In this document: piece by piece, positions 1,436 through 58,999 of the stretch | Layout of the letters: each line of letters begins with the position of its first letter | Numbering within the stretch: the first letter of the stretch is position 1 | Assembly (NCBI GenBank): GCA_963781085.1 | Contig: CAWAES010000048.1 | Span: 112,606-176,605, forward strand | Direction of reading: 5' to 3' | From: an uncultured Actinomycetes bacterium | GTDB taxonomy: Bacteria; Actinomycetota; Actinomycetes; Streptosporangiales; Streptosporangiaceae | DNA length: 64,000 nt | Notes under the pieces: model-generated | Seen by the model: the letters and a program-made list of their open reading frames with translations, nothing else | Databases searched by the model: none | Told to the model about the DNA's origin: nothing | Position numbers and translations under genes: made by a program

Positions 1436-2196
1436 GTAGTGCTCCGTGAGTAGACGTGGTGCAGTCAGCGTGACCAGGACGGCCCGGCTGGCCTTCAGCC
1501 CCGGCGTCCGGGTGGGTCATGCTCGTGCGGGATGGGTACCCGGGCTGGCCGGGGTGGTGGCGAGGCGGCTGTCGTCAGGCTCGCTGCCGGTGAGCGGGAG
1601 GATCAGCCGCAGCCGTGCCGGTGAGGTAGACGAAAGGGGAGGGCAGTCCAGTGCCCTTGTCACAGGACTTCGCGCGGCCGGCAGGCAGGCCCCGAGGTGA
1701 GGCAGCGTCTTGCCGGCAGCGTTCCGTGACGAGAAAAATTTCCGGGCCCTTCGGTTCCGCGTGCATTTCGCGGCGGCAGCTGCCAGGGTTCGGGGCAACA
1801 TTTTTTACTGTACGCGCTTTCCCGTCACATGGGAAATTCGCGGCCAATTAACAGGAATTCCTCCAGCGGCGTTGTCCCGCAAAAAGAGCGGCGCTGGCCA
1901 GTAAAGAAATTGTGCGCCAGACCCGTTCAGCGCGGGCCAGCCGGCCCTGGGTGGTTCACGCGGGCTCCCGCACGGACTCTCACGCGGCCAGGCGTGGTCA
2001 CGGCTTCGGGCGCCCCGGATTTCGCGCCCGCCGGAGGCGGGCCAGCGTCTGCCCAGCAGACACCAGCCGGATGCCCGCTATTTCCTTCCCGGGGGAGCGG
2101 CCAGGTGATTGAGGGGGCCCATAGAGCCGGTGATTATCCCCGGGCAGCTGGATATCGAATGGCTGCTGCCGGAAATGGCGGAAGGAATTCCGGGTG

Positions 2197-3439
2197 CTAC
2201 GTGTGCACACCTGAGGTGTCACGTGGGTCCGGCACGGCGCGCTGGCCGCGGGGCCGGCTTCGCAGCACGGCGAGCATGAGCAGGCACGCGGCCGCGAGGA
2301 CCGCCGCAAACCACCGGACCGACACGGTCAGCCCGACCAGCGTGGCGAGCAGGCCGACGCCGACGGTGACCAGCCCGCTGCCCGCGTAGGTCACCACGTA
2401 GAACATGGAGACCGTCCCGGCCCGGGCCTGCGCCGGGGCGATCTCGTTGATCCGCCGCAGGCCGCCCATGAACGCCAGCCCCTGCCCGCAGCCCGCCACC
2501 GCCATCGCCGCGAACAGCACCGCCGCGCTGGCCGCCGGCCCGGCCGTGACGAGCCCCGCGGCGATGAGCCCGAGCAGGCCGCCGGCCAGGCCGGCCAGCC
2601 CGGCCGCCTGGGCCCGGGCCGGGTCCCACGACCGGCAGAGCGCCTGCGCGAGGGCCGCGACCAGCAGCAGCGAGCCCGCCGCGGCGCCGTCGACGAACAG
2701 GTTGCTGCCGCCCAGCGCCGCCGCCGCGTACGAGGGAACCAGGGCCAGCACCACGTACGCGACCGCCCAGGCCAGCAGGCTGACCACAGCCGGAGCCAGG
2801 AACGCGGCGCGGACCGGCGCCGGGAGGCTCGGCCACCGGGGCTGCCAGCGCTGCCCCGACCGGCCCAGCGAGCCGGGCAGCAGGGCGGCCACGGCCACGG
2901 CCGGGACCAGCAGCGCGATCTCCACCAGGTAGCTGAGCACCCGCGGGGCGGGGGCGTACTGCGCGAGCGCCCCGGCCAGCACCGGGCCGAACCCGACGGC
3001 CGCGGTGGTCGCCGTCGCAGCCAGGAACGACGCGCGGGCCCGCCGCCCGTGCGGTTCGGTCAGCACCAGCCCGGCGGTGAGCGCCCCCGAGCAGGTGCCC
3101 ACGGCCAGCCCCTGCACCGCCCGGCCCGCGAACAGCCAGCCCGGTCCCGCCGCCGCGGCCAGCAGCGCCGAGCCGCAGGCCGCCGCCACCAGCCCGGCCA
3201 CCAGCACCGGGCGGTAGCCGGCGGTGTCGGCGAGCGGGCCGCAGATCAGCAGGGCCGACACGACCGCGGCGGCGTAGACGGCCACCAGCAGCGTCACGTC
3301 CAGCGGCGAGAGGCCGAACACGTGCTCATACACCGCGTACAGCGGGGTGGCCAGGTTCGTCCCGGTCAGCAGGACGGTCAGGGCGTAGCCCAGCCCCGCG
3401 TACCGGATCCTGCCGCCGGCCGCGTAGCGGCCGGGTCAT
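2197..3439 (-). CDS. MFS transporter, apparent frameshift in the first ~12 codons
   Basis: The 378-aa track ORF is polytopic (Ala/Leu/Gly/Val helices). TM1 (RYAGLGYALTVLLTGTNLATPLY) continues upstream of the track start with no start codon. ATG 3439, overlapping the upstream stop as ATGA, is in another frame. This implies a 1-nt indel near 3400-3412. Confidence 0.75.
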
Positions 3440-6925: not shown

Positions 6926-7756
6926 ATGGACAACACACCTGCCACCGGCACATCCACCACGGGTCCAGCTCCCACGGGCACAGCCGCCCGGCCGGCTGCG
7001 GCCTGCTGGCGGGCAAGGTCGCCTTCGTCACCGGGGCCGGCCGCGGTATCGGCGCCGCCGCGGCCCGGCTTTTCGCCCGGGAGGGCGCCCGGGTGCTGCT
7101 CGCGGCCCGGACGGAGGCCCAGCTGAAGACGGTGACCGAGGAGGTCCGGGCCGCGGGCGGCAGTCGCGGACTACGTGCTGTGCGATCTCGCCGACCCGGC
7201 CAGCGTGCGCGCCGCCGTCGACCGCGCCGTGGACGTGTACGGCCGGCTCGACGCCGCCTTCAACAATGGCGCGGCGTTCGTGCCACCCGGCCCGATGGAC
7301 CAGGTGCGGGAGGCCGACTTCGACTACGTCTACGCCGTGAACCTCAAGGGCCCGTGGCTGGCCATGGTCGCCGAGATCGCCGCCATCCGGGCTACCGCCG
7401 GGACGGGGGCCATCGTCAACAACTCCAGCGTCGGCAGCCTGATGGGCAACCCGGAGCTGCCCGCCTACGGCGCGATGAAGCGGGCGGTCAACAGCCTCAC
7501 CGAGTCGGCGGCCATCACCTACGGCCCGGAAGGCATCCGCGTCAACGCCATCGCCCCCGGCAACACGCTGACCGAGATGATCCGGACCTGGGAGGCGGAT
7601 TCGCCTGGTCTCGCCGAGCGGCTCCAGGCGCGGACCCCGCTGCGCCGCGCAGCCGACCCCGGCGAGATCGCCCAGGCCGCCGCCTGGCTGCTCAGCGACC
7701 GGTCGTCGTTCGTGACCGGCACGGTCCTGCGGGTCAACGGCGGCGCCCGGGCCTGA
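6926..7756 (+). CDS. SDR-family oxidoreductase, two apparent frameshifts (~7000-7006 and ~7158-7166)
   Basis: MDNTPATG...AARPAAA, then a shift to GLLAGKVAFVTGAGRGIGAAAARLFAREGARVLLAAR...EEVRAAGG, then a shift to AVADYVLCDLADPASV...NNSSVGS...YGAMKRAV (TGxxxGxG, NNxS and YxxxK motifs). Confidence 0.8.
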
Positions 7757-7852
7757 GCCCGTGGATGCCGCCATGACAGTCCCTCATGCCGTCCCCAGCC
7801 TGGCTGGCACCGCGTGCGTAGCGGTGCCAGCCAGTCATCAGGGTCTGGCGGA

Positions 7853-8816
7853 TCAGCCGGCGGAGACGGGTGCCGTGCTGATCGCGTCGAGCGCCTCGTC
7901 GATCGAGCGGGGCGAGCAGTCCTTGACCGACACGCCGATGTGCGGCCCGGAGGGGAGTTGCGAGACCGCTGCCACCGCTCTTGCCGTCAGCGTCCCGTCC
8001 CGTCCGGCCTGGCCCAGGGCGAAGATTGTGGTGCCGTCCTGCAGCTGGCCCAGGCGGGCGTGGGGGACTATGACGAGCGTGTCGCCGGAGGTGGTCACCC
8101 GGAACCCGGGTTCCGCTGGACGTGACGAGGGTGAAGCCAGCGCTGCCCGCGCCCGACACCGTCCCCCGGACCGGGACGAAGCCCGGTGGGTTCACCGCGC
8201 TGAACGGCGGTCCGACGGTGACGATGGCGGCTGCGATCGTCCCGCCGGAGCTGTGGCCGCGCACCATGACTGACGCCCCGTCCGTGATGTCGCTCAGCAG
8301 CGGTCCGGACATGCTCACAAACGTGGACGGCGTCGTGGTCACGGTCACCGGCTGGCCGCTGGCCGTCTTAACGACCAGGCTGGTGCCGTTCACCTGCTCG
8401 AGCGTCCCGTCGGCCTGCTCGAGCAGGGAGCACCCGGTGACCGCGGTGAGGGCCGTCCCGGTGCCGGGACCGGATAGGTGCACGTGCACGTATCCGGTCA
8501 CCTCACCGACCCCCACGAGCAGGACGAGCGCGGCTGCCGCGCTGCCGGCGACCAGCATGGCGCGCCGCCAGGGACCCGCCAGTACACGCGGCCGGGTGTG
8601 CCGCGGCCGGGCAGGCTGGGCCGCCTCCGGCGCAGCCGCCGCCAGGCCGCGGACCCCGCCGGCGACCAGATCCCAGCGGTTCGCTTCGGTACGGCAGTGC
8701 TCGCAGTGCGTGAGGTGTTCCCGGGCCTGGTCGTCTACCGGCTGGCCGGTGACCTCGGCGATCAGGTCCGCCAGGTCCAGATGGGGGGAGCGGGTGTCAG
8801 CAGGGCTTGTGTTCAT
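7853..8816 (-). CDS. zinc-binding (HxxxCxxC) anti-sigma factor with one TM segment, apparent frameshift near 8095-8110
   Basis: N-terminus carries HLTHCEHCRTE and TM segment MLVAGSAAAALVLLVGV. The natural sequence continues from ...GFTLVTSSGTRVP into the 7853..8098 ORF frame (VTTSGDTLVIVPHARLGQLQDG...). Its start overlaps the sigma stop by 4 nt. Confidence 0.75.
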
Positions 8817-14428: not shown

Positions 14429-14472
14429 GACGACGAGCCAGACTGGCTGACAACCTGTCCCCGCGGGGGCTC

Positions 14473-14515
14473 GGCGACACTCTCGGTACGGTGGGCGACG
14501 CTCTCGGTTACGGTG
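14473..14515 (+). repeat. tandem 21/22-bp duplication
   Basis: GGCGACACTCTCGGTACGGTG followed by GGCGACGCTCTCGGTTACGGTG, directly upstream of the polycysteine sORF. Confidence 0.8.
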
Positions 14516-14520
14516 AAGGT

Positions 14521-14562
14521 ATGTGCTGCTGCACTGCCATGAACATCTGTACCGCCGCTTAG
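14521..14562 (+). CDS. 13-codon polycysteine small ORF (MCCCTAMNICTAA), candidate leader peptide
   Basis: ATG TGC TGC TGC ... TAG. Its 3' end lies inside the left arm of a 12-bp hairpin. No well-spaced SD is present, so it could be leaderless. Confidence 0.35.
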   Translation: MCCCTAMNICTAA

Positions 14563-14573
14563 CGGCGGTACAG
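14547..14573 (+). promoter_or_regulatory. 12-bp perfect hairpin overlapping the sORF stop; its right arm can alternatively pair with 14623..14631
   Basis: CTGTACCGCCGC-TTA-GCGGCGGTACAG. A third segment, GTACCGCCG at 14623..14631, repeats the left arm. Confidence 0.45.
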
Positions 14574-14704
14574 GGGCTGCCGTGACCGTGGCCTCAACGC
14601 CTGCCCGTGCCGGGGTCAGTGCGTACCGCCGGATCAGTGTCCCGCCGGCAGCCACTCGCGTATCCAACCTGCGCTGCCGGACGTCCTGCCTGATCAGGGG
14701 AGTC

Positions 14705-15208
14705 ATGTCTCAGTCGCAGCGATCCGAGTCACATCCACAGTGCGAAGAACCGTTCCTGTACCCGTACGCCACCACGATGTTCCTGATGGTCGGGCTCCCC
14801 GGGGCCGGGAAGACTACCCGGGCCAAAGAGCTCGCCGCGGCGCACCGGGCGCTGCGGCTGACCCCGGATCACTGGATGATCCCGCTGTTCGGCGATCCGA
14901 TGGCCAGCGGCAAGCGGTTCGCACTGGAAGGGCGGCTCATCTCAGTTGCCCTGCAGGCGCTGCGGCTGGGGACCAGCGTCGTGCTCGACTACGGGCTCTG
15001 GGGCCGCGATGAACGGTCGGCGCTGCGGTGGCTGGCCCGCTCAGCCGGGGCCTTCTGCCAGGTGGTCTACCTGCCCGTGGACAAGGACGTCCAGCTCGCC
15101 CGGATCGCGTACCGCCAGGAAACGGCACCGCACCAGACGTTCCCGATGAGCGAGGCCGACGTGCTGTCACGGGACCCCTTCCAGCCGCTTCCCTCAGAGT
15201 GCCGATAA
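14705..15208 (+). CDS. P-loop kinase/ATPase (AAA_33 / zeta-toxin-like fold)
   Basis: ATG follows AGGGGAG. Walker A motif MFLMVGLPGAGKTTRAKELA is present, followed by LDYGLWGRDERSALR. Confidence 0.75.
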   Translation: MSQSQRSESHPQCEEPFLYPYATTMFLMVGLPGAGKTTRAKELAAAHRALRLTPDHWMIPLFGDPMASGKRFALEGRLISVALQALRLGTSVVLDYGLWGRDERSALRWLARSAGAFCQVVYLPVDKDVQLARIAYRQETAPHQTFPMSEADVLSRDPFQPLPSECR

Positions 15209-15228
15209 TGAGCATTATGTTAAGTAGC

Positions 15229-15365
15229 GATCTGGGTACCGCCTCTTCTGCCCCCGTATCCTGTTGTGGCTTCTCACTCAAGTTTTCATTTTTCTCGTTG
15301 AGCGTTGCAAGTCTTCTCACGCAGATTTCAACTGCCGTGCCGTCACTGCGCTGTCCTAGGACACC
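15229..15365 (+). mobile_element. degenerate IS-derived remnant related to 18086..18313 (shorter, more diverged)
   Basis: Low-GC patch. It shares GATC...GTGGCTTCTCA-N-CAAG-NN-TTCATTTTT-CT and a diverged tail with the 18.1-kb copy, with about 55 nt missing internally (alignment by eye). Confidence 0.35.
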
Positions 15366-15380
15366 GAGTTGACCGTTTGC

Positions 15381-16004
15381 TCAGACGGGAAGTTCGGTGA
15401 TGCTGAGCGCGAAGTCCAGGTTCCCCACCCCGTGGTTGGCGAGGCCCACCGTGACCACGCCTGCTCCTTCCAGCCAGTGCGCCATTTTCAGGCCGCCGAC
15501 GTCCAGGGGGCGCAGCCCGAGGCTCTCGATGAACGCCTCCACACTTGCCTTGGCCTGCGCATTCTCGCCAGCGATGAAGACGTCGGGCCGGCCCTTCTCC
15601 AGGACCTGACGGAAGATGGTGTTGAACGCCTTCACCACGCTGGCGCTGGCCGGGGCCGCCTTGGCGACTTCCTGCGCGATCGAGGTCTCCTCGCGGTGGG
15701 CTAGCCCGTCGAACGTGGAATTGAAGGGATTGCTGATGTCGACGATGATCTTGCCCGCGAGAGCGTCTCCGTACTGGGCGACGACCGGCACGACGCCGTC
15801 GTGCAACAGGGCCACGATGACGATGTCCCCGGCCGGGGCGGTGCCCCACTCTCCCGTCGTGGCGCCCCCGCCGAGAGCCCTGGCCAGGTCAGCGGCCTTG
15901 GACTGATCGCGGCCCATGACCTCGACAGTGTTGCCGCCCGCTACCGCCCGCGCGCCGATGGTGCGGGCCATGTTCCCGGTGCCGATGATGCTGATGCTGC
16001 TCAT
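15381..16004 (-). CDS. NADPH-dependent F420 reductase family (NADP oxidoreductase, coenzyme F420-dependent)
   Basis: MSSISIIGTGNMARTIGARAVAGGNTVEVMGRD (Rossmann fold), with length and pattern typical of NpdG-like proteins. Confidence 0.8.
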   Translation of the reverse strand: MSSISIIGTGNMARTIGARAVAGGNTVEVMGRDQSKAADLARALGGGATTGEWGTAPAGDIVIVALLHDGVVPVVAQYGDALAGKIIVDISNPFNSTFDGLAHREETSIAQEVAKAAPASASVVKAFNTIFRQVLEKGRPDVFIAGENAQAKASVEAFIESLGLRPLDVGGLKMAHWLEGAGVVTVGLANHGVGNLDFALSITELPV

Positions 16005-20879: not shown

Positions 20880-22135
20880 TCAGCTCGCGCGCGTGTCCTG
20901 CCTGTCCCGCGGTCTCGTGGCTCCTGGTCTCACCCGGCGGGCCCGGGACTCCAGGTAGCGCTGCTCGGCGAGGCTGGCGGTGGCCTTCGCGGCACGCCGG
21001 TAGTGCTCATGCGCCCCGGCTGTGTCGCCGGTCTTCTCCAGCAGATGCGCCCGGACCGACAGCAGCCGGTGATGCCCGGACATCCGCTCGTCAGCTGTCC
21101 AAGGTGGACAGCAGGGCCAGCCCGGCCTGCGGGCCCTCGGTCTCGGCGAGCGCGATCGCCCGGTTGAGGGTGACCATCGGGTTGGGCGCGATCCGCTCCA
21201 GGATCAGGTAGAGAGCGTGCACCTGCGGCCAGTCGGTCTCCGCGGCGGTGGCTGCGTCGGCGTGCGTGGCGGCGATGGCGGCCTGCAGCTGGTAAGGCCC
21301 CAGCGCCGGGGCGGCCAGCGACGCCTTCGCCAGCTCAGTGCCCTCGTCGATCAGCCCGCGGTCCCACGTCGCACGGTCCTGCTCGTCCAGCGGCACCAGG
21401 TCGCCGGCCGCCGTCGTCCGTGCCTCCCGGCGGGCGTGGGTCAGCAGCATCAGCGCGAGCAGCCCGGACACCTCGCCGTCCCCGGGCAGTTGCGCGTGCA
21501 CCGTCCTGGCCAGCCGGATCGCCTCGTGCGCGAGGTCGGCGCGGTGCAACTCGCTGCCCGAGGAGGCGGTGTAGCCCTCGTTGAAGATCAGGTAGAGCAC
21601 GTGCAGGACGACCCGGAGCCGCTCTTCGCGCTCCGCGCCGTCCGGCAGGCTGAACGAGCTGCCGGCGGCCTTGATCCGCTGCTTGGCCCGGCTGATCCTG
21701 GCCGCCATCGTGGCCTCCGGCACCAGGAACGCGCGGGCGATCTCGGCAGTGGTCAGGCCGCCGACCGCGCGCAGCGTCAGGGCGGTCTGGGAGGCCGCGG
21801 TCAGCGTCGGGTGACAGCACAGGAACAGCAGGACCAGCGTGTCGTCGGTGTCTGGTACGTCCTCGGGCACCACGTCGGTGGCTGTCGCCCGCTCCCGCTC
21901 GCGGCGCGCGGCGTCACTGCGCATCGTGGTCGATGAGCCGCCGGGACGCGACAGTCGTCAGCCAGCCGCGCGGGTTGTCCGGCACTCCCCCGTCCGGCCA
22001 CTGCACGGTGGCGGCGAGGACGGCCTCCTGCACGGCGTCCTCACACCCTTCGAACTGGCCATGCCGGCGTACCAGCGTGCCGAGGACCTGCGGCGTGAGC
22101 TCACGCAGCAGGTCCTCGATGGCTGGTGCTGTCAT
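20880..22135 (-). CDS. ECF-type sigma factor with long C-terminal extension (DUF6596-type), two apparent frameshifts (~21086, ~21915-21925)
   Basis: Three track ORFs (21914..22135, 21091..21924, 20880..21083) join into one protein colinear with the intact paralog at 32567..33784. Removing one A gives LSTLDADERMSGHHRLLSVRAHLLE. Confidence 0.8.
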
Positions 22136-22503
22136 GCCTCCAATTGTCCGTCAGCGAACATCACCTGCCGCACCTCGACCCCCAGGCCCTCGATCGCGGC
22201 GTCCGGGATCTGCGCCGCCAGCTCGATCGCCCGCTCCTTGTTCTCGCAGTCGATCAGGTAGAAACCGCCCAGATACTCCTTGGACTCCAGGAAAGGCCCG
22301 TCGGTCACCACCGGCTGGCCGTTGCGCACCGACACCACGGCCGCCTGCGACGGGTCGACCAGCGCCTGCGTGCTGATCAGCTCGCCGGACTTCTTCAGCG
22401 CCGCGATGAACGTGCCGTGGCCCTCACCGATCGCCGCCTTCTCCTCGTCGGTCAGCGCGTCCAGCACGGCCGGGTTGATATGCAGGCTGATCAGGAACTT
22501 CAT
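22132..22503 (-). CDS. YCII-related domain protein
   Basis: MKFLISLHINPAV...VVTDGPFLESKEYLGGFYLIDCENKERAIELA. ATG follows GAGGAG. Its stop overlaps the sigma start. Confidence 0.85.
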   Translation of the reverse strand: MKFLISLHINPAVLDALTDEEKAAIGEGHGTFIAALKKSGELISTQALVDPSQAAVVSVRNGQPVVTDGPFLESKEYLGGFYLIDCENKERAIELAAQIPDAAIEGLGVEVRQVMFADGQLEA

Positions 22504-30805: not shown

Positions 30806-31657
30806 TCAACCAGAACGTTCGCCTGCCGCGCGGAGGGCACCGGGGCGAAGCGGGGTGCCCAGCGTCCGGCTGACGAGAGTGCGGTGGGCGGCGTGCAGGG
30901 TCCGCACCGCCGCCGGGGCGAGGCCCGGCTTGACCGGCGGCTGGCCGCCCCGGGGCCGCCCGGGCTTGACCGGGATCCACAGGTAGCCAGGGTCGCTGCC
31001 CTGCAGCTCGGCGATGATCTCTGCGCGGGCTGCGAGCCACCGGGTGAGGATCGCCACGGCCGGGCCGCTGAGGCGGCACGGACCGTCGGCGAGTTCGACG
31101 CGAGCCTCGCCGTCCAGGTGCAGCGCGCCGACCGCGAGGCCGGCCAGTTCGGGGACGCCCCGCCCGGTGTCGGCGACGAGCGCGGCCACGGCCGCGGTGC
31201 GCAGCGCGATGGCCACGTCGCCCAGGATGGGCAGGCGGGTGGTCAGGTCGTACAGGAGCCGCTGGGTGTCGGCGGGGGTCAGGTAGAAGCCCCGGGCCGG
31301 CGGCTCGTTGTCACGGCGGTCGGGCAGCCCGAGGAACTCGGCGAACGCGTTGTAGGAGCGGATGCGCACCCTCATGGAGTTCGGGTAGGAGGCGGCCTCG
31401 GGGCCGCGCAGCGTGTTGCGGGTGCGCAGCTTGCCGTCGGCTGCGTCGGCGAGCCACGCCGCGGCCCGGCTGGGGTCCATGAGCTCCCCGGCTGTCAGCT
31501 GGCCGGCACCGGCGGCCTGCTGGGCGTGCTGCAGGTACTCCTCCAGGAAGTGCCTGCGGATCCGGCGGGTACTGGCGGCGAACTGCCGGTCAGACAGATG
31601 GCGGGCGAAGTCGTCAATGGCCACGCTGGCCGGCGTGCGGGCGTCCACTTCAGGCAT
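30806..31657 (-). CDS. tyrosine-recombinase/integrase-like protein, apparently lacking the C-terminal catalytic Tyr region
   Basis: A SAM-like N-domain (IDDFARHLSDRQFAASTRRIRRHFLEEYLQ) and a core with ADTGRGVPELAGLAVGALHLD (R...E box). The protein ends ...PLRPGALRAAGERSG just where HxLRH...Y would follow. Confidence 0.5.
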   Translation of the reverse strand: MPEVDARTPASVAIDDFARHLSDRQFAASTRRIRRHFLEEYLQHAQQAAGAGQLTAGELMDPSRAAAWLADAADGKLRTRNTLRGPEAASYPNSMRVRIRSYNAFAEFLGLPDRRDNEPPARGFYLTPADTQRLLYDLTTRLPILGDVAIALRTAAVAALVADTGRGVPELAGLAVGALHLDGEARVELADGPCRLSGPAVAILTRWLAARAEIIAELQGSDPGYLWIPVKPGRPRGGQPPVKPGLAPAAVRTLHAAHRTLVSRTLGTPLRPGALRAAGERSG

Positions 31658-31679
31658 GCCCCGAGCGTATGACGTCACA

Positions 31680-31700
31680 AGCGATAACAGCAAGAAGCCG
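31680..31700 (-). repeat. 21-nt motif, inverted variant copy (minus strand CGGCTTCTTGCTGTTATCGCT)
   Basis: Core GATAACAGCAAGA at 31683..31695, 23 nt upstream of the integrase-like start. Confidence 0.8.
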
Positions 31701-31735
31701 ACGGCTCAGACACGCCGGCACGTTCTTGATGAGCC

Positions 31736-31795
31736 ATGGTCCGGGACGAAACCGGGCCGGACCGGTTCGAGCCGATCTGGTCCGGCCCGGACCAT
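31736..31795. other. cluster of four alternating GGTCCGG/CCGGACC heptamers forming mutually exclusive hairpins
   Basis: ATGGTCCGGG (31736..45), CCGGGCCGGACC (31752..63), GGTCCGGCCCGG (31779..90), CCCGGACCAT (31786..95). The inner pair forms a 12-bp stem with a 15-nt loop. Confidence 0.6.
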
Positions 31796-31832
31796 CCACT
31801 CCCCTGGGCCGGACGGGCCTGCCGTGGCTGTA

Positions 31833-31853
31833 CGAGCGCCTCTTGCTGTTATC
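31833..31853 (+). repeat. 21-nt motif CGAGCGCCTCTTGCTGTTATC, direct copy (identical to 35861..35881)
   Basis: Exact 21/21 match to the 35.86-kb copy, in the same orientation, 4028 bp apart. Confidence 0.9.
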
Positions 31854-31895
31854 GCGCCACGACCGGGGAGAGAGCGGTCCCGTGCCCTGGACGCC

Positions 31896-31916
31896 CGAGC
31901 GCATCTTGCTGTTATC
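31896..31916 (+). repeat. 21-nt motif, variant copy CGAGCGCATCTTGCTGTTATC
   Basis: 20/21 match to the perfect copies. The flanks also resemble the 31.83-kb copy (CCNTGG...CGAGCGC). Confidence 0.85.
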
Positions 31917-31961
31917 AGACGCGGCGCCCGCCGGACAAGAGCCGTCTGCCCGCCTGGCTTC

Positions 31962-32561
31962 TTATCCGGCCTGACGGGCCGCGGCGCGCGCCTGCTCCAG
32001 CTGATCCACGCTGACCGGCCCGGTCCCGGGCAGGCCAGCGGCGGCCCACGCCTGCTGGGCGCGGGCCGTGTCCCCCGCCGCCTCCTGCAGCACGATCTTC
32101 TTCGCCGCGGTGCCGGGCACGGCACCGTCCACGCCCATGTCCATCAGGTGGGCCAGCATCCTGACCGACTGATTCCGCTGCCCGGCCTTCCGCTCGTTGT
32201 AGCGGTAGACCAGGACCCAGCGCCCTTCCAGCGAGCGGGCCCGCTCGATCAGCGCCCGGCCGCGGTCGCTGTCTTTCTGCTCGGTGCGGATCGGCTCGCT
32301 CTCGCCGGACGGCAGCCGCAGCGTGAGCAGCCCGCGGCGGCTCGACTCCTCGATCTCGACCTTCTCCAGGAACGCGACGAAGGTCCGGGCTGACTCCAGC
32401 CGCTCGACGTCCTGCCTGGCCTGCTGGGCGATCAGGTGCAGGTCCACGGTCAGGCTCTGCACCCGGCGGCCCCAGGCTGCCTCGTCGCCGGGGGGACACG
32501 GTCCCGCCGCCTGCGCCGCCGCGACCACCAGGCTGTAGTGGGTGTTGTCCACGCTGCTCAT
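31962..32561 (-). CDS. hypothetical protein, 199 aa, no family recognised
   Basis: Intact track ORF with coherent composition (…RTFVAFLEKVEIEESSRRGLLTLRLPSGESEPIRTEQKDSDRGRALIERARSLEGRWVLVYRYNERKAGQRNQSVRMLAHLMDMG…). It lies 5 nt downstream of the sigma gene stop. Confidence 0.65.
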   Translation of the reverse strand: MSSVDNTHYSLVVAAAQAAGPCPPGDEAAWGRRVQSLTVDLHLIAQQARQDVERLESARTFVAFLEKVEIEESSRRGLLTLRLPSGESEPIRTEQKDSDRGRALIERARSLEGRWVLVYRYNERKAGQRNQSVRMLAHLMDMGVDGAVPGTAAKKIVLQEAAGDTARAQQAWAAAGLPGTGPVSVDQLEQARAAARQAG

Positions 32562-32566
32562 TATCG

Positions 32567-33784
32567 TCAGAGCCCGGACAGCCGGCTGGCGAGAAAACGC
32601 CGTTCCGCCTCGGTCGGCGCGAGGCCGAGGGCCTTCCGGTAGCTCTCACCCGCCTCCGGCGTCCGCCCGGCGCGCCGAAGCAGGTCGGCCCGCGTCGCGT
32701 GCAGCAGGTAGTAGCCGTCCAGCTGCCCGGTCCCGGCGATCTCGTCGACCAGGAGCAGCGCGGCCTCGGGGCCGTCCGCCATGCCGACCGCGACGGCCCG
32801 GTTCAGGTCCACGACCACGCTGGGCGCCACCCGCGCGAGCTGCCCGTACAACCCGACGATCTGCGGCCAGTCGGTCTGGTCCGCGGCGGCCGCGGTGGCA
32901 TGGCACGCCGCGATGGCCGCCTGGATCTGGAACGGGCCGGCCCACTGCCGGCGCAGGGCCCGGTCCAGGACCGCCGTCCCCTCGGCGATCTGGCCGGCGT
33001 CCCAGAGCGAGCGATCCTGTTCGTCCAGGGTGACCAGATTGCCGCTGGCGTCGGTGCGCGCCGGGCGGCGGGCGTCGTGCAGCAGCATCAGCGCGAGCAT
33101 GCCGTGCGCCTCGGGCTCGTCGGGCATCAGCGCGGCGAGCACCCGGGCCAGCCGGATGGCTTCCTGCGCCAGCCGGGTCTCCCCCGGGTGCCCGTAGCCC
33201 TCGTTGAACAGGAGATAGAGGACGTGCAGGACGGCGGGAAGACGTTCAGGCAGCAGGTGCGGGGGTGGCACCCGGAACGGGATGCCCGCGTGCGCGACCT
33301 TCTGCTTGGCCCGGAAAAGGCGCTGGCCCATGGTGCGTTCTGGCAGCAGGAACGCGCGGGCGATCTCGGCGGTGCTCATGCCGGCCAGGCTGCGCAGGGT
33401 CAGCGCCACCTGGGCGTCGAGGTTCAGCGACGGATGGCAGCAGGTGAACATGAGCTCCAGGCGCTCGTCCGGGATCTCGCTGTCCCGGGCGTACGGCGGT
33501 GGATCCGGCTGCATGGCGGCCACCTCCCGCAGCTTCGCCGCCTCGGTCAACGCGCGGCGCATCCGGTCGATGGCGCGGTGCCGCGCCGTCGTGGTGAGCC
33601 ACGCCAGCGGCTCGTCCGGGACGCCTGAGTCCGGCCACTTCTGGAGTGCCTGCGCGAAGGCGTCCTGGGCGCACTCTTCGGCCAGGTCCCAGTCGCCGCG
33701 GGTGAGCCGGATCATGGCGGCCACGACCCGGCTCCACCCGTCGGCGTAGATCCCGGCGATGCGCTCTTGAGCCTGCGTTACCAC
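32567..33784 (-). CDS. ECF-type sigma factor with long C-terminal extension (DUF6596-type), intact paralog of 20880..22135
   Basis: Motifs: AQDAFAQALQKWPDSGVPDEPLAWLTTTARHRAIDRMRR, FTCCHPSLNLDAQVALTLRSLAGMSTAEIARAFLLPERTMGQRLFRAK, HVLYLLFNEGY. Confidence 0.9.
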   Translation of the reverse strand: MVTQAQERIAGIYADGWSRVVAAMIRLTRGDWDLAEECAQDAFAQALQKWPDSGVPDEPLAWLTTTARHRAIDRMRRALTEAAKLREVAAMQPDPPPYARDSEIPDERLELMFTCCHPSLNLDAQVALTLRSLAGMSTAEIARAFLLPERTMGQRLFRAKQKVAHAGIPFRVPPPHLLPERLPAVLHVLYLLFNEGYGHPGETRLAQEAIRLARVLAALMPDEPEAHGMLALMLLHDARRPARTDASGNLVTLDEQDRSLWDAGQIAEGTAVLDRALRRQWAGPFQIQAAIAACHATAAAADQTDWPQIVGLYGQLARVAPSVVVDLNRAVAVGMADGPEAALLLVDEIAGTGQLDGYYLLHATRADLLRRAGRTPEAGESYRKALGLAPTEAERRFLASRLSGL

Positions 33785-33825
33785 TGGTCCCCGGCCTGGG
33801 CGGTCACGCCGGTCCTGGCCAGCTG

Positions 33826-34167
33826 CTAGTCCTGGTCATCAAGCCAGAACGGCCGCAGCTCGATCGCCCCGGCCCAGGCCATCGGGTGCCTGGACGCGAC
33901 CTCGATCGCCTCGTCCAGGTCGGCGCACTCGAGGACGTCGAAGCCGGCGATCAGGTCCTTGGTCTCCGCGTAGGGGCCGTCGGTCAGCAGGACCTCACGG
34001 TTGCGGACCCGCACCGTGGTGGCGTCGCTGGCCGGCCGGGTGCGGTTGCCCATCAGCCTGATCCCCTTGCCGTCCATGTCCGAGACCCAGTCCTCGACGT
34101 CCGGGGCGCCGTCGTCCTGGCCAGGCGTGTAGTCCGGGTCCGTGCAGACCAGCATCAGGTACTTCAT
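33826..34167 (-). CDS. YCII-related domain protein
   Basis: MKYLMLVCTD...LLTDGPYAETKDLIAGFDVLECADLDEAIEVA. Confidence 0.85.
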   Translation of the reverse strand: MKYLMLVCTDPDYTPGQDDGAPDVEDWVSDMDGKGIRLMGNRTRPASDATTVRVRNREVLLTDGPYAETKDLIAGFDVLECADLDEAIEVASRHPMAWAGAIELRPFWLDDQD

Positions 34168-34277
34168 GGTGTTGCCCTCCCTTTTCCGTTTGTCACGCAG
34201 ATGACGAACGGGCCGGACGCTCTACTACCGGTCGGGGTGAAGATTTTTCCCAGCTGCCGTCCTATCTGGTCGCTGCT

Positions 34278-35768
34278 TCAGCGGAAGCGCCGCCGCACCA
34301 TGCCCCGGGGACCGTAGGACATCCAGGCCCCGCCGCCGGGGCCGCGCGACAGCGCCCCGCCGGCCGGCAGGTCGGCCGGGTCCACTCCCACCCCGTGCAG
34401 GGTGCGGGTCACCGCCTGGGCCGCGTCGAGCAGGTCGTCGAGTGCGCGGGCCAGCTGCGCCCCGGTGACGGCGGTCAGCGCCGGGTCGTCCTGCAGTGAC
34501 TCCAGCACGCTCCGCCGGATCAGCTCCTTCAGGAACGACGCCGTGGTGCCGTCGGTGCGCTCGACGGCGAGGTTCACGTCGTCCTCGGTCAGGGCCAGCG
34601 GGACGGCCTGCCCGTAGAGCCGCAGCAGCTGTTCCCGGGCCGGGGCGTCCGGCAGGGCGATCTCGACGGCGACGTCGACCCGTCCCGGCCGCGCGGCCAG
34701 GGCGGGCTCCAGGAGGTCGGCGCGGTTGGTGGTCAGCAGGAACAGCAGGTCGGCGTCGGGGGCCGCCCCGTCCATGGCGTCGAGCAGGTCGAACAGCACG
34801 GGACTCGACGCCGGGCCCATCGAGCGTTCCTCGGCGACGAGGTCAACGTCCTCGAGCACCACGACGGCGGGCTGCAAGGCCCGGGCCAGGTCGGTCACCG
34901 CGCCGACGGCCACCAGGGAGCGTCCGGTCAGCACCAGGCGCGTGTAGCCGCCCATCTGTCCCAGCAGGTAGCGCATGGTGTGCGTCTTGCCGGTGCCCGG
35001 CGGCCCGTACAGCAGCAGGCCGCGCTTGAGATGCTGCCCGGCGGCCAGCAGCGCCGCCCGGTGGCTGGCTACCCCCAGGGCATGCCGCTCGACCCGCGCG
35101 AGCACGGCGGGCGGCAGCACGACGTCGTCGCGGCTGAGCCCGGGCGGGCCGGCGAACGTGAGGACGACACCACCCATCGGGTTCAGCGATACGTCGAGCA
35201 GGTGGCCGCGGTACACGTTGAGCTCGGCCCGCAGCTCGTCCAGCTCGGCGAGCAGGCGCTGGGCCAGGTCCACGGGCAGGCCAGCGACCTCGATCTCCAG
35301 AGCCCCGTGATGCTCGTTCGGGGCCTGGATCATCACGACGTACCGGCCGTTCTGATCGGTCACCAGCAGCAGGGCCAGGCGCAGGCACCCGAGGGTCGAC
35401 CCTGGCCCGTTCGGCAGGTCGGTCAGCGCGGGCGCCGTGAGCCGCAGCGGTGGCAGCCCCTCCCCCGCGACCAGCTGCTGCAGCGACAGGCCCCCGTAGT
35501 GCGGCGGCAGGGCGATGCCGCTCACCTGCACCGTGCGCCCCGCGCGCGCTGACCAGGCGTCGAGGGCGGTCTGCAGGTTGACGTGCTCGAACGGGGGCAG
35601 CTCGCGGGTCACCACCGAGTGCTGCGCGCCATCGGACCCCAGGCTGTCGCGGATCAGCACGGACACCTCGTTGGCCTCGGCGGTGCCGGGCCCGTGAATC
35701 CAGTCCAGGAAGAGGCGGAACGCCGCGGCGAACTCGCGGGCCGCTTCGTCGGGCGCCTGATCGGGCAT
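34278..35768 (-). CDS. AAA+ ATPase with ~230-aa N-terminal domain of unknown function
   Basis: Starts at MPDQAPDEAAREF (M29 of the track ORF). Motifs: LLLYGPPGTGKTHTMRYL (Walker A), VVVLEDVDL (Walker B), LLTTNRADLLEPALAARPGRVDV (sensor/Arg finger). Confidence 0.85.
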   Translation of the reverse strand: MPDQAPDEAAREFAAAFRLFLDWIHGPGTAEANEVSVLIRDSLGSDGAQHSVVTRELPPFEHVNLQTALDAWSARAGRTVQVSGIALPPHYGGLSLQQLVAGEGLPPLRLTAPALTDLPNGPGSTLGCLRLALLLVTDQNGRYVVMIQAPNEHHGALEIEVAGLPVDLAQRLLAELDELRAELNVYRGHLLDVSLNPMGGVVLTFAGPPGLSRDDVVLPPAVLARVERHALGVASHRAALLAAGQHLKRGLLLYGPPGTGKTHTMRYLLGQMGGYTRLVLTGRSLVAVGAVTDLARALQPAVVVLEDVDLVAEERSMGPASSPVLFDLLDAMDGAAPDADLLFLLTTNRADLLEPALAARPGRVDVAVEIALPDAPAREQLLRLYGQAVPLALTEDDVNLAVERTDGTTASFLKELIRRSVLESLQDDPALTAVTGAQLARALDDLLDAAQAVTRTLHGVGVDPADLPAGGALSRGPGGGAWMSYGPRGMVRRRFR

Positions 35769-35860
35769 GACCTGGACCTCCAGCCTCACTGGCCGCCGCC
35801 CACGGCCGGGACACGGAGCCGAGCCTACGCGTGACCCAGCGTTCCGCCGCATCGGTTTTC

Positions 35861-35881
35861 CGAGCGCCTCTTGCTGTTATC
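35861..35881 (+). repeat. 21-nt motif CGAGCGCCTCTTGCTGTTATC, direct copy (identical to 31833..31853)
   Basis: About 95 nt upstream of the AAA+ ATPase start. It is followed by a second TTATC (CACCGGTTATC). Confidence 0.9.
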
Positions 35882-35928
35882 ACCGGTTATCGACGTGGCC
35901 CATCCGCCTGGCTCGTCACGCCGGCCAG

Positions 35929-36330
35929 TCACAGGAGCGCCAGGTCCAGGCCGCGCAGCCGCGCGGGATCAGCGATCACGTCGTACCCGGCGATCCGGCC
36001 GTCCGCCACCGTCACGGTGAGGGCGAGCAGCAGCTCGCCCGGGGGGCGACCACGACACCGACCGCGCCGTTCCCCAGAGCTGGTTCCGCGAACCTCGCGC
36101 GCGGCCCGAGGACCAGCGTCTGCCGCGCGACCGCGCCGGCGCCGCGGACCACGGTCTCGCCGCCCGGTGGCAGCGCCGCCGGGTCGGCCCGCCGGACGAC
36201 GTCCGGGGCCAGCACGGCCAGCAGGGCCGCGAGGTCACCTCGGCGGGCGGCGGCGAGGAAGGCCTCGACGACCTGCTGCTGGCCGCCCAGCTCGGCGCGC
36301 GGGACCGCCGGGCGCCCCGGACCCGCTGCC
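35929..36330 (-). pseudogene. C-terminal fragment of a SigJ-like sigma factor (SnoaL-like domain), frameshifted and 5'-truncated
   Basis: LASRARQRVRGAPA.., ELGGQQQVVEAFLAAARRGDLAALLAVLAPDVVRRAD...GAGAVARQTLVLG...NGAVGVVVAP, then a shift in the run GCCCCCCGGG to GELLLALTVTVADGRIAGYDVIADPARLRGLDLALL, stopping at 35929. No regions 2-4 lie upstream. Confidence 0.6.
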
Positions 36331-36379
36331 GTGCCCGGCTGGCGAGGTTCCAGGAGGTGGCCCTGGGATCCGCGGCCCC

Positions 36380-36683
36380 GCGACCGTGGCCCGAGGATCC
36401 CCCCGGGAACGAGGAGGACGAGGACGCGCCCGTACACGACCACCGGCCGCCGGACGTCGTGTTCGCCTTCTACCGGGACCAGATCAGCCGGGCGAACGCC
36501 GTTGTGGCCACGACCCCGCTCTCCGCGCGGCCGGTCGGCCGGCACAACCGGGAGGGCACTGAGCACGTGACCGATCTGCGGACCATCATGCTGCACATGA
36601 TCGAGGAGACGGCCCGGCACGCGGGGCACCAGGACGCCGCCCGCGAGCTGCTCGACGGGCAGACCGGTCTCGGCCCCCGGTAG
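36380..36683 (+). pseudogene. C-terminal fragment of a DinB/DUF664-family gene (5'-truncated)
   Basis: …VVFAFYRDQISRANAVVATTPLS...VTDLRTIMLHMIEETARHAGHQDAARELLDGQTG (compare 5415..5955). No credible N-terminal half is present in any frame. Confidence 0.6.
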
Positions 36684-36904
36684 TCCCGGCTCAGGCCGTC
36701 AGTCCGCCGCTGGCTGTCCTTGACCCTCCTGAACATCACCATGACCTGCATCTTGCGCTGCCGATCGAGAGTCTTGAGCCGGGCCATGGCTTCCTGCGGC
36801 GTGCGGGCTCCGTAGCGGATACGTAGATTTCGGGGGCGCAGGCCACCACGGGCGCACCGCGGCGCCGCCACCGGGATCACCGGCCGCGGCACCGCGGGGG
36901 CCGG

Positions 36905-58204: not shown

Positions 58205-58999
58205 TTACCCTTCGCGGGCCGGCTCGCCGTGCTGGGCGTTCGCCTTGCCGCGGCCCCAGTAAGCCTTGGCCGAGACCTGCTCGCCGGGCACGCCGCGGGC
58301 GGCGAGCACCTCACGCAGCGCCAGTACCACCCTGGCCTCGCCGAACAGGTAGACGTGGCCGGTGCCGGGCGGCAGCTCCGCGGCCTGCAGCGCCGCGGCC
58401 AGGGCCTCCGGGTCGCCCGCCGGCCGGCCGTCCCTGGGCAGCCAGGTCAGGCCGACCCCGGCCGGGAGGTCCGGCTTCTGCTCGTCGGCGGCCTCGGGAA
58501 CCTCCAGGACCGCGGCCGCCCGGCCTCCGGGCGGCAGCGAGCCGGCCATCGCGAACACCGCGGCCAGCCCGGACTCGTCCGCGGCGAACAGGTACCAGTC
58601 CGCCTGGCGGTTCAGGAAGATCTTGCCGCGGGGGGCGATGCCCTCGATCGTGTCGCCGGGCTGGGCCGACCGGACCCACCGCTCGCCCGGGCCGTCGCCG
58701 TGCCGGACGATGTCCAGGGTGAGCAGCTGCCGGGCCGGGTCCAGGTCCCGGATCGTGTACCGGCGGCGCACCGGGCGGTTGCCGTCCACGGCCACCAGCA
58801 GCATGACGTCCTGGCCGGGCTGGTAGGCCAGGTCGGCGAGCTCCGGCGCGGTCAGCTCCAGCCGCTGCATGTGCGGGGTGAGCTGGGTGTTGCCCACGAC
58901 CTCGAGCCGCATCCGGACGGTACCGGCCAGGGGCCCTCTCAGCTCGGCGAACGGGTCATCCAGCTGCGCCGCGGTGGCGGCGGGAACAGAGTCAGGCAT
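58205..58999 (-). CDS. siderophore-interacting protein (FAD-binding 9 / SIP family)
   Basis: RRRYTIR motif, IAPRG, WYLFAADESGLAA, VYLFGEARVV. Confidence 0.85.
   Translation of the reverse strand: MPDSVPAATAAQLDDPFAELRGPLAGTVRMRLEVVGNTQLTPHMQRLELTAPELADLAYQPGQDVMLLVAVDGNRPVRRRYTIRDLDPARQLLTLDIVRHGDGPGERWVRSAQPGDTIEGIAPRGKIFLNRQADWYLFAADESGLAAVFAMAGSLPPGGRAAAVLEVPEAADEQKPDLPAGVGLTWLPRDGRPAGDPEALAAALQAAELPPGTGHVYLFGEARVVLALREVLAARGVPGEQVSAKAYWGRGKANAQHGEPAREG

Follow-up and report, generated by a model that had tools for sequence, protein, structure and literature searches.

The window analysed here is a 64-kb stretch of actinomycete DNA (from contig CAWAES010000048.1), taken in full and with coordinates counted from its first letter. 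It carries a short asymmetric motif that occurs as an inverted pair directly upstream of a gene, here called int-like, for a tyrosine-recombinase-derived protein. The interpretation that we favour, with moderate confidence and from sequence comparison, is that this catalytically dead recombinase has the motif as its cognate binding element, and that the inverted pair (the home pair) and a phased CG array between its two copies together form a looped autoregulatory complex. No description of the motif, of the int-like family or of a co-resident protein of 199 amino acids (aa), p199, was found in either the literature or Pfam/NCBIfam/PADLOC, and the system appears to be undescribed; a literature search with the motif string returned unrelated primers only.

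The sequence-only reading of this DNA had pointed out a perfect 21-bp direct repeat, and both copies of the 21-mer, CGAGCGCCTCTTGCTGTTATC, were recovered at 31833–31853 and 35861–35881, both on the plus strand, 4028 bp apart and identical at 21/21 positions, with 0 matches in 100 dinucleotide-preserving shuffles. The 20/21 variant that it had placed at 31896–31916 is likewise present on the plus strand, 63 bp beyond the copy at 31833, as is the inverted core at 31683–31695. Four perfect copies of the 13-bp core, TCTTGCTGTTATC, lie in the window (at 31841, 31904 and 35869 on the plus strand and at 31683–31695 on the minus strand), and a core scan of the 64 kb allowing fewer than two mismatches found no fifth copy, in agreement with the earlier claim that the window holds no other; the chance expectation is 0.18 even with two mismatches. 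The three direct copies resemble each other over 34 nt at 79–82%. On the gene-sense strand they read GATAACAGCAAGA(G/T)GCGCTCG, and the copy that lies 25 nt upstream of the int-like ATG has the opposite orientation. Overall the motif is asymmetric and 13–17 bp long, with the consensus tGATAACAGCAAGAaGCg and, across int-like loci, the extended consensus cGCtTCTTGCTGTTATCa; variation within the core is confined to the last base. The variant ...AAGAGGCGCT is common to several copies in the lineage of the window and loci L001 and L143, the copy at 35861 included. Because 12–13 positions show no variation and single copies occur without a partner, recognition by a protein is more plausible than base pairing.

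The int-like loci compared comprised four contigs reached via homologues, 36 genome loci and seven relatives added later (~45 orthologous loci). In nearly all of them the perfect core was present as an inverted pair directly upstream of int-like, with a spacing of 154–163 bp start to start, typically ~157 bp. Standard inverted pairs numbered 31 among the first 40 genome or metagenome loci, and the pair was also found in all seven close relatives added later. The loci range from Streptosporangiales to Streptomyces plasmids, and the spacing is kept even though the Streptomyces int-like proteins are only 45–53% identical. This left-hand control region stands in front of int-like whether or not the four genes that the direct repeat brackets in the window are present. 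On the plasmid NZ_CP108851 the architecture stays with int-like although p199 lies 85 kb away, and in L141–143 and L147 the whole 170-bp architecture does so with p199 4.7 kb off. One contig, L035, has two p199/int-like pairs (7223–8266 and 14436–15473), 8 kb apart and each with its own inverted pair. On one Streptomyces plasmid, of which 90 of 101 kb were read, the motif occurs at the home pair only. Tandem distal copies, of the kind seen at 31833 and 31896, are found 54–63 bp apart in L001, L016, L018, L022 and L144–146 as well.

In every aligned locus a TAnnnT hexamer, TACGCT in the window, precedes the start codon by 6–8 nt. This is the usual actinobacterial layout for a leaderless transcript and suggests a leaderless-type promoter at TACGCT. 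The gap from the proximal motif copy to TAnnnT is 10–13 nt, and ~10 nt longer in Streptomyces. The motif pair overlaps the predicted int-like promoter in a conserved manner, with the proximal copy at the −35 position.

Midway between the inverted motif copies lies an array of ~11 units of the form CG[G/A]N[C/T]. The span from GGTCCGGG to CCCGGACC, the inverted sequences that bound the array, is exactly 55 bp in most loci, and ~30 other loci have an array at the same place. A custom CG-phase count over 31 loci gave a distance of 5 between successive CGs in 200 of 303 cases, a peak that the flanks do not show, and 8–11 CGs in one phase per array compared with ~3 in shuffles. Tandem Repeats Finder misses the pentamer array because its units are too degenerate, and no Rfam family matches the window region or 20 array-rich loci. 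The arms of the central palindrome were complementary at 6.07 of 12 positions within a locus and at 6.12 of 12 between loci. As the arms are no more complementary within loci than between them, the central region is read as a symmetric binding array and not as a stem. Two loci, L015 and L025, are without the central array, and neither has p199 nearby. The right end of the array often reads GACCCGGA, which appears to correspond to the TraB recognition sequence of the Streptomyces plasmid pSVH1.

The int-like family has more than 1272 homologues, essentially all of ~283 aa, mainly from Streptosporangiaceae and Trebonia metagenome-assembled genomes. It is compact, since an exhaustive search resolved it into just 126 clusters at the 50% level. 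Neither int-like nor p199 had an above-threshold match in Pfam, NCBIfam, PADLOC or PHROGs; distant int-like members gave sub-threshold matches to PF00589 and phrog_1. A family profile that included members down to 24% identity matched only Xer recombinases in the PDB (E-values of 1e-4 for XerD, 2e-4 for XerA, 7e-4 for XerD-FtsK and 0.4 for XerH), and the aligned part of these proteins was the N-terminal half of the catalytic domain only. The best Foldseek matches of the int-like structure model, whose predicted local distance difference test score (pLDDT) is 61, were to Cre, XerA, IntI and lambda Int, and were weak (E 0.04–1). An hhalign comparison of the family profile with one canonical Streptomyces-plasmid integrase gave no signal (probability 0.13).

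The position of XerD R148 (Arg-I) is variable in the int-like family, and the Lys hairpin, the catalytic Lys, the His and the Tyr-bearing C-terminus are missing. All members end at the box-II Arg, ...RPGALR (corresponding to ...SPHVLR in XerD), or run on into an unrelated tail. With no Arg-I, no Lys hairpin and every member stopping at ...RPGALR, the family is an old, conserved and catalytically dead derivative of tyrosine recombinases. The gene had been described as a truncated integrase-like gene; its recombinase ancestry and its end before the Tyr region stand, whereas the truncation does not, as the ~283-aa family never has the Tyr and the protein is a full-length member of it, not a decayed integrase. 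Residues 221–245 (window ~30923–30997) form an invariant loop, SDPGYLWIPxKPGRPRGG..KPG, in a very low-confidence part of the model; its GRPRGG is similar to the core of an AT-hook, which might allow it to read the AT-rich TTAT of the motif.

The protein p199 is 67–95% identical across Streptosporangiales and Streptomyces plasmids, where int-like is 49–91% identical. Its gene adjoins int-like in most loci and is present on 20/20 of the top int-like plasmids, once 85 kb away. The protein is thus the co-resident partner of int-like, and the motif binder is probably encoded on the same replicon, given that all 20 top int-like plasmids also carry p199. The p199 model has N-terminal helices and a barrel resembling the oligonucleotide/oligosaccharide-binding (OB) fold (pLDDT 62), with weak OB-type structural matches. 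In L017, L018 and L022 a motif copy precedes p199 itself, 26–80 nt before a GATAAT/CATAAT −10-like box and the GTG start, and these copies make it more likely that the motif has a real part in regulating p199 expression.

The right-hand copy of the 21-mer has a different history from the home pair. It lies in a 59-bp segment that is absent at the same position from four close relatives in two lineages (L001, L141, L143 and L147), which have the same genes there. The copy at 35861 is therefore a recent, lineage-specific gain, and is best seen as one more dispersed copy of the motif. The repeats do enclose four co-directional genes, for p199, an ECF sigma factor, a YCII protein and an AAA ATPase, as had been noted from the sequence, and GC3 (third-codon-position GC) frame analysis places all local genes on the minus strand. 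The four genes do not form a unit with the repeats, because the copy before the AAA gene sits in an insertion found only in this lineage. Their company also varies, with YCII-ECF-p199 but no AAA gene in L002 and L035, and neither the AAA gene nor the YCII-ECF pair beside p199 in L003 and L004. The features of the locus are collected in Table 1.

Table 1. Features of the int-like locus and its surroundings, in window coordinates
Feature	Position	Strand	Remarks
int-like gene	30806..31657	-	283-aa tyrosine-recombinase-derived protein; GC3 0.90; proposed motif binder
-10-like TACGCT (TAnnnT)	31664..31669	-	6 nt before ATG at 31657; putative leaderless-type promoter
Proximal core copy	31683..31695	-	TCTTGCTGTTATC on gene-sense strand; 25 nt before ATG, over -35 position
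Central array	31738..31793	.	Bounded by inverted GGTCCGGG / CCCGGACC; ~11 pentamers, CG every 5 bp
Distal copy of home pair	31833..31853	+	Left 21-mer of the earlier note; core 31841-31853
Second, tandem distal copy	31896..31916	+	20/21
p199	31962..32561	-	199 aa, highly conserved, no family assigned
ECF sigma with DUF6596/TPR	32567..33784	-	Bracketed by repeats
YCII protein	33826..34167	-	Bracketed by repeats
AAA ATPase	34278..35768	-	Real start ATG 35768 behind GGAGG
59-bp insertion with right 21-mer (35861-35881) and partial GATAAC	35861..35919	+	93 nt upstream of AAA start

Joint Genome Institute (JGI) metagenomes were scanned for exact matches to GATAACAGCAAGAAGCG, which gave at least 120 loci. 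The GC content of the matches listed was 0.59–0.76, with just one below 0.66, and int-like was present in only 3 of the 120. Among these listed matches, 97 of the 118 scorable copies were intergenic, with 33 in convergent, 52 in tandem and 12 in divergent gaps. Conservation around the dispersed copies stops at ~17 nt, and the copies are single or in co-oriented sets with 17–156 bp spacing. Some motif contigs are syntenic at 72–92% identity with the window or with int-like loci, so related organisms carry dispersed copies. In the 10 kb around int-like, extra copies came at a density of ~1 cluster per 75 kb, close to the ~1 per 60 kb on motif-ascertained contigs. A scan of viral contigs returned 97 matches, nearly all below 62% GC, with no int-like or p199 homologue on those examined. 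The sequence-only reading had named a dispersed repeat unrelated to the gene set as the outcome that would overturn it; the motif is indeed dispersed in related metagenomic DNA, and this applies only in part. Possible roles for the dispersed copies are a regulon, a selfish repeat or a polar signal of genome architecture.

In the mechanism that we propose, the int-like protein would clamp copies of the motif as a recombinase monomer clamps its 13-bp element. At the upstream pair, its home site, the protein would act as an autorepressor, probably as part of a looped complex with dyad symmetry, and the CG-phased array in the centre may be bound by p199. The copy at 35861, inserted recently before the AAA-YCII-ECF-p199 operon, may tie that operon to int-like. 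An alternative offered from the sequence alone, in which the integrase-like gene and the ATPase operon share these sites as operators, comes close to this best-supported reading.

Several observations weigh against the proposed mechanism. The motif may instead be bound by p199 or by a host factor, and the int-like structure model (pLDDT 61) is of low confidence. The −10 box lies at no fixed distance from the site but 18 to 80 nt away, depending on the promoter, and an E. coli-style consensus scan finds no promoter at int-like, where the assignment follows from the leaderless-type layout. Among the metagenomic matches listed, 117/120 are without int-like in the stretch examined, and the dispersed copies prefer convergent (33) over divergent (12) gaps, unlike a classical regulon.

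Among known systems, XerC/XerD-dif and Cre-loxP use a 13-bp element for each recombinase monomer, with the inverted elements 6–8 bp apart. The motif core has the same length, and int-like is homologous to the N-terminal half of the Xer catalytic domain. In contrast, the home elements are ~145 bp apart, and no strand exchange is expected of int-like, since it has no Tyr, Arg-I, Lys or His. A precedent for the proposed role is TnsF of Tn6022, an inactivated derivative of a tyrosine recombinase that selects targets by binding DNA sequence-specifically (Faure et al. 2023, PMC10293859). Compared by description only, the two share a tyrosine-recombinase fold without a catalytic pocket. TnsF differs in having ~500 aa and N-terminal zinc fingers, in lying inside a Tn7-like transposon and in targeting comM (PMC10293859), whereas int-like has ~283 aa, is stand-alone, is paired with the OB-like p199 and has its own repeated 13–17 bp site with a dyad home region.

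If the favoured interpretation is true, a widespread unannotated family would join the few recombinases domesticated into pure DNA binders, and would do so with an exact recognition sequence. The unusual architecture of the home site, with eleven CG-phased pentamers between inverted 13-mers that are 15 helical turns from each other, would point to a defined nucleoprotein machine. For annotation, such repeats should not be taken for att sites, nor such genes for 'integrase/XerD', as some sources label them.

The orientation of motif copies was not random, and was coherent by region. Copies less than 300 bp apart were co-oriented in 37/37 pairs, and separate clusters 0.36–6.3 kb apart on one contig in 7/8. 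Genes followed the GATAAC>AAGA arrow of the motif in 290 cases and opposed it in 227 (p 0.006), with the same tendency in 42/61 loci (p 0.004). Immediate neighbour genes showed no net bias (95 versus 99), which makes the co-orientation effect a regional one. Around int-like, extra copies upstream point to the home site and those downstream (L012, L014 and L189) point back to it, with L034 as the exception; the orientation is as a two-sided polarity expects at ~10/11 independent extra clusters. Gene-strand bias was 127 plus versus 86 minus to the left of the home site and 74 plus versus 76 minus to its right. On eight plasmids the distance between int-like and parA is 25–49% of the circle, with seven of them at 37% or more; the backbones are related, and parA serves as a proxy for the origin. 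The orientation pattern fits, without proving, a polar Ter-like system and, if the favoured interpretation is true, raises a replication- or segregation-linked polar signal as a possibility.

Tus-TerB in E. coli and RTP-TerI/II in B. subtilis provide the precedent for such a system. In both, one or more asymmetric, oriented sites lie directly upstream of the binder's own gene and mediate autoregulation, and a few further sites of side-specific polarity surround that gene. It is conceivable, if rather unlikely, that the motif copies are polar sites of the Tus-Ter, RTP-Ter or KOPS (FtsK-orienting polar sequence) type that keep one direction across long stretches and change polarity exactly at the home site, where bound int-like would stop replication forks or give a translocase its direction, besides controlling its own gene in the manner of Tus at TerB. 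The co-orientation of near pairs and clusters, the regional agreement of genes with the motif arrow, the aim of extra copies at the home site (L034 apart) and the position of int-like relative to parA all argue for this, as does the inverted innermost pair beside the binder gene, its proximal copy over the −35 of the predicted promoter, which is the layout of rtp and TerI-II in B. subtilis. A fuller form of the idea, also doubtful, has the polar signal follow the direction of replication and converge on the dyad home site, where int-like and the OB-fold p199 on the array would build a fork-arrest or segregation complex. Soil actinomycetes and their large plasmids would then have a Tus/RTP-like or dif/KOPS-like system of independent origin, the third of its kind and descended from the Xer machinery itself, a proposition that we hold only tentatively. 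We know of no fork-trap protein in Actinobacteria.

Against polar sites, the gene-strand bias fails to reverse to the right of the home site, and L035 has two home sites only 8 kb apart. Tandem arrays with 51–113 bp periods are unlike Ter, and neither they nor the CG-phased array have a counterpart in the Tus and RTP systems. The protein folds are unrelated and no similarity to Tus or RTP was found; the related plasmid backbones and the use of parA as a mere proxy for the origin also limit what the plasmid positions can say.

Less probable again is a dispersed repeat similar to repetitive extragenic palindromic (REP) sequences or REPINs, which would spread by copying, with int-like as its single-copy cognate like a REP-associated tyrosine transposase (RAYT) and with the copy at 35861 free of regulatory meaning. 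REPs are palindromes arranged in inverted doublets, and a RAYT is an active HUH enzyme whose gene has them on either side (PMC3116915, PMC3337134). The likeness lies in a dispersed intergenic repeat combined with a single-copy domesticated recombinase or transposase gene that has inverted copies beside it. The REPIN-RAYT precedent (PMC3116915, PMC3337134) is joined by the spread of the motif over at least 120 high-GC loci, mostly intergenic and in excess at convergent gene ends, by the presence/absence polymorphism of the 59-bp motif-bearing segment, by tandem satellite-like arrays, and by the shared variant ...AAGAGGCGCT in the window, L001 and L143, which suggests copying from one another. 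Here, however, the motif is asymmetric and not palindromic, its copies are co-oriented with no inverted doublets, conservation ends at ~17 nt and both home copies are upstream. The int-like protein has no nucleophile, is unrelated to HUH transposases and has no Pfam match. The density is also low, ~1 extra cluster per 60–75 kb and none elsewhere in the 64-kb window or in 90 kb of plasmid, and random insertion would not give a coherent orientation.

A few dispersed loci show further structure around the motif. Tandem motif arrays with periods of 92–113 bp occur in L161, L218, L222, L227, L232 and L245, each spacer containing a long perfect palindrome (stems of 10–21 bp) whose sequence differs from spacer to spacer. 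A composite element of palindrome and motif was considered and rejected, as stems of at least 9 bp were found near 44–47% of motif copies and in 42% of random windows. Insertion sequences (ISs) of the ISAzo13 family (PF07592) lie 60–215 bp from the motif in L022 (2638–4412), L225 (97–1864) and L218 (~1450–3100), three independent places, and in L218 the transposase gene lies between inverted motif copies. The motif was also rejected as a terminal repeat of ISAzo13 type; in L022 and L225 the IS ends in unrelated terminal repeats of its own and lies 130–215 bp from the motif, and L025 has the same site without an IS.

Two readings of the home site as an inverted repeat can be set aside as very unlikely, namely an invertible DNA switch resembling fimS and driven by the adjacent recombinase, and a long hairpin in RNA with the inverted copies as its arms. 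Both draw on the inverted 13–17 bp repeats that flank a ~145-bp segment next to a recombinase-like gene. All close locus pairs are nevertheless collinear, scores favouring the reverse complement appear only in distant pairs of the quasi-palindromic segment, and int-like has no catalytic residues to drive a switch. A hairpin is contradicted by arms without any compensatory changes, by the equal complementarity of the central arms within and between loci and by the lack of an Rfam match.

Least probable of all is the proposal first made for this DNA, that the repeats are attL and attR of an integrated, now immobilised four-gene element. Two identical 21-bp copies in direct orientation, 4028 bp from each other and next to a gene of recombinase type, with gene remnants on the right, would suit it. 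Against it, relatives L001, L141, L143 and L147 carry the same genes without the right repeat and its 59-bp insertion, which is one of the outcomes that the sequence-only reading had itself named as a refutation. In addition, the control region to which the left repeats belong is conserved where the four genes are missing, the int-like family down to 24% identity is always without the Tyr and does not conserve the Arg-I position, the locus shows neither a shift in GC composition nor a nearby tRNA, and no int-like or p199 was found on the viral contigs with the motif pattern that were examined.

Comparison with the close relatives accounts for the remaining features of the locus. The window is missing 3.8 kb that its 91%-identical relative L001 has, and the junction lies at 36346–36350. 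The lost segment holds in L001 a TetR gene, a tautomerase gene, two motif copies, an FMN oxidoreductase gene and the 5' part of a sigma-70-type gene. This loss explains the patch of gene remnants that had been noted to the right of the repeat, and truncated sigma and DinB-like remnants remain at 35929–36900. In both L001 and the window, a block starting with motif copies and int-like sits between p199 and a UvrD-like helicase gene. In L141–L143 and L147, relatives at 87–88% identity with p199 and int-like 4.7 kb apart, p199 abuts the helicase gene and the int-like block lies at another place (blocks at L001 9764–18072). Site-specific relocation of the block between L001 and L143 was considered and rejected; the rearrangements are real, and the junction has only 7–8 bp of microhomology (TAGCGGC). 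In L180, L256 and L228, which were sought for an empty-site comparison, synteny with the window breaks.

Pairs of YCII and ECF sigma (DUF6596) genes recur at other places. A second such pair, 47–53% identical to the bracketed one, lies at ~21100–22350 on the minus strand of the window and at L001:13909–15546. An unusually long tRNA-Cys(GCA) of 86 nt was predicted by ARAGORN at 58349–58434 on the plus strand, far from the locus. A UvrA-like ABC ATPase (PF17755; PADLOC mad3, E 7e-55) and the 496-aa AAA ATPase recur within 10 kb of int-like, at L002:10856–13885, L004:1–3879, L033, L035 and L141–L147. They are arranged as an AAA-UvrA-like operon or with the UvrA-like gene directly 3' of int-like; the window has the AAA gene and no UvrA-like gene.

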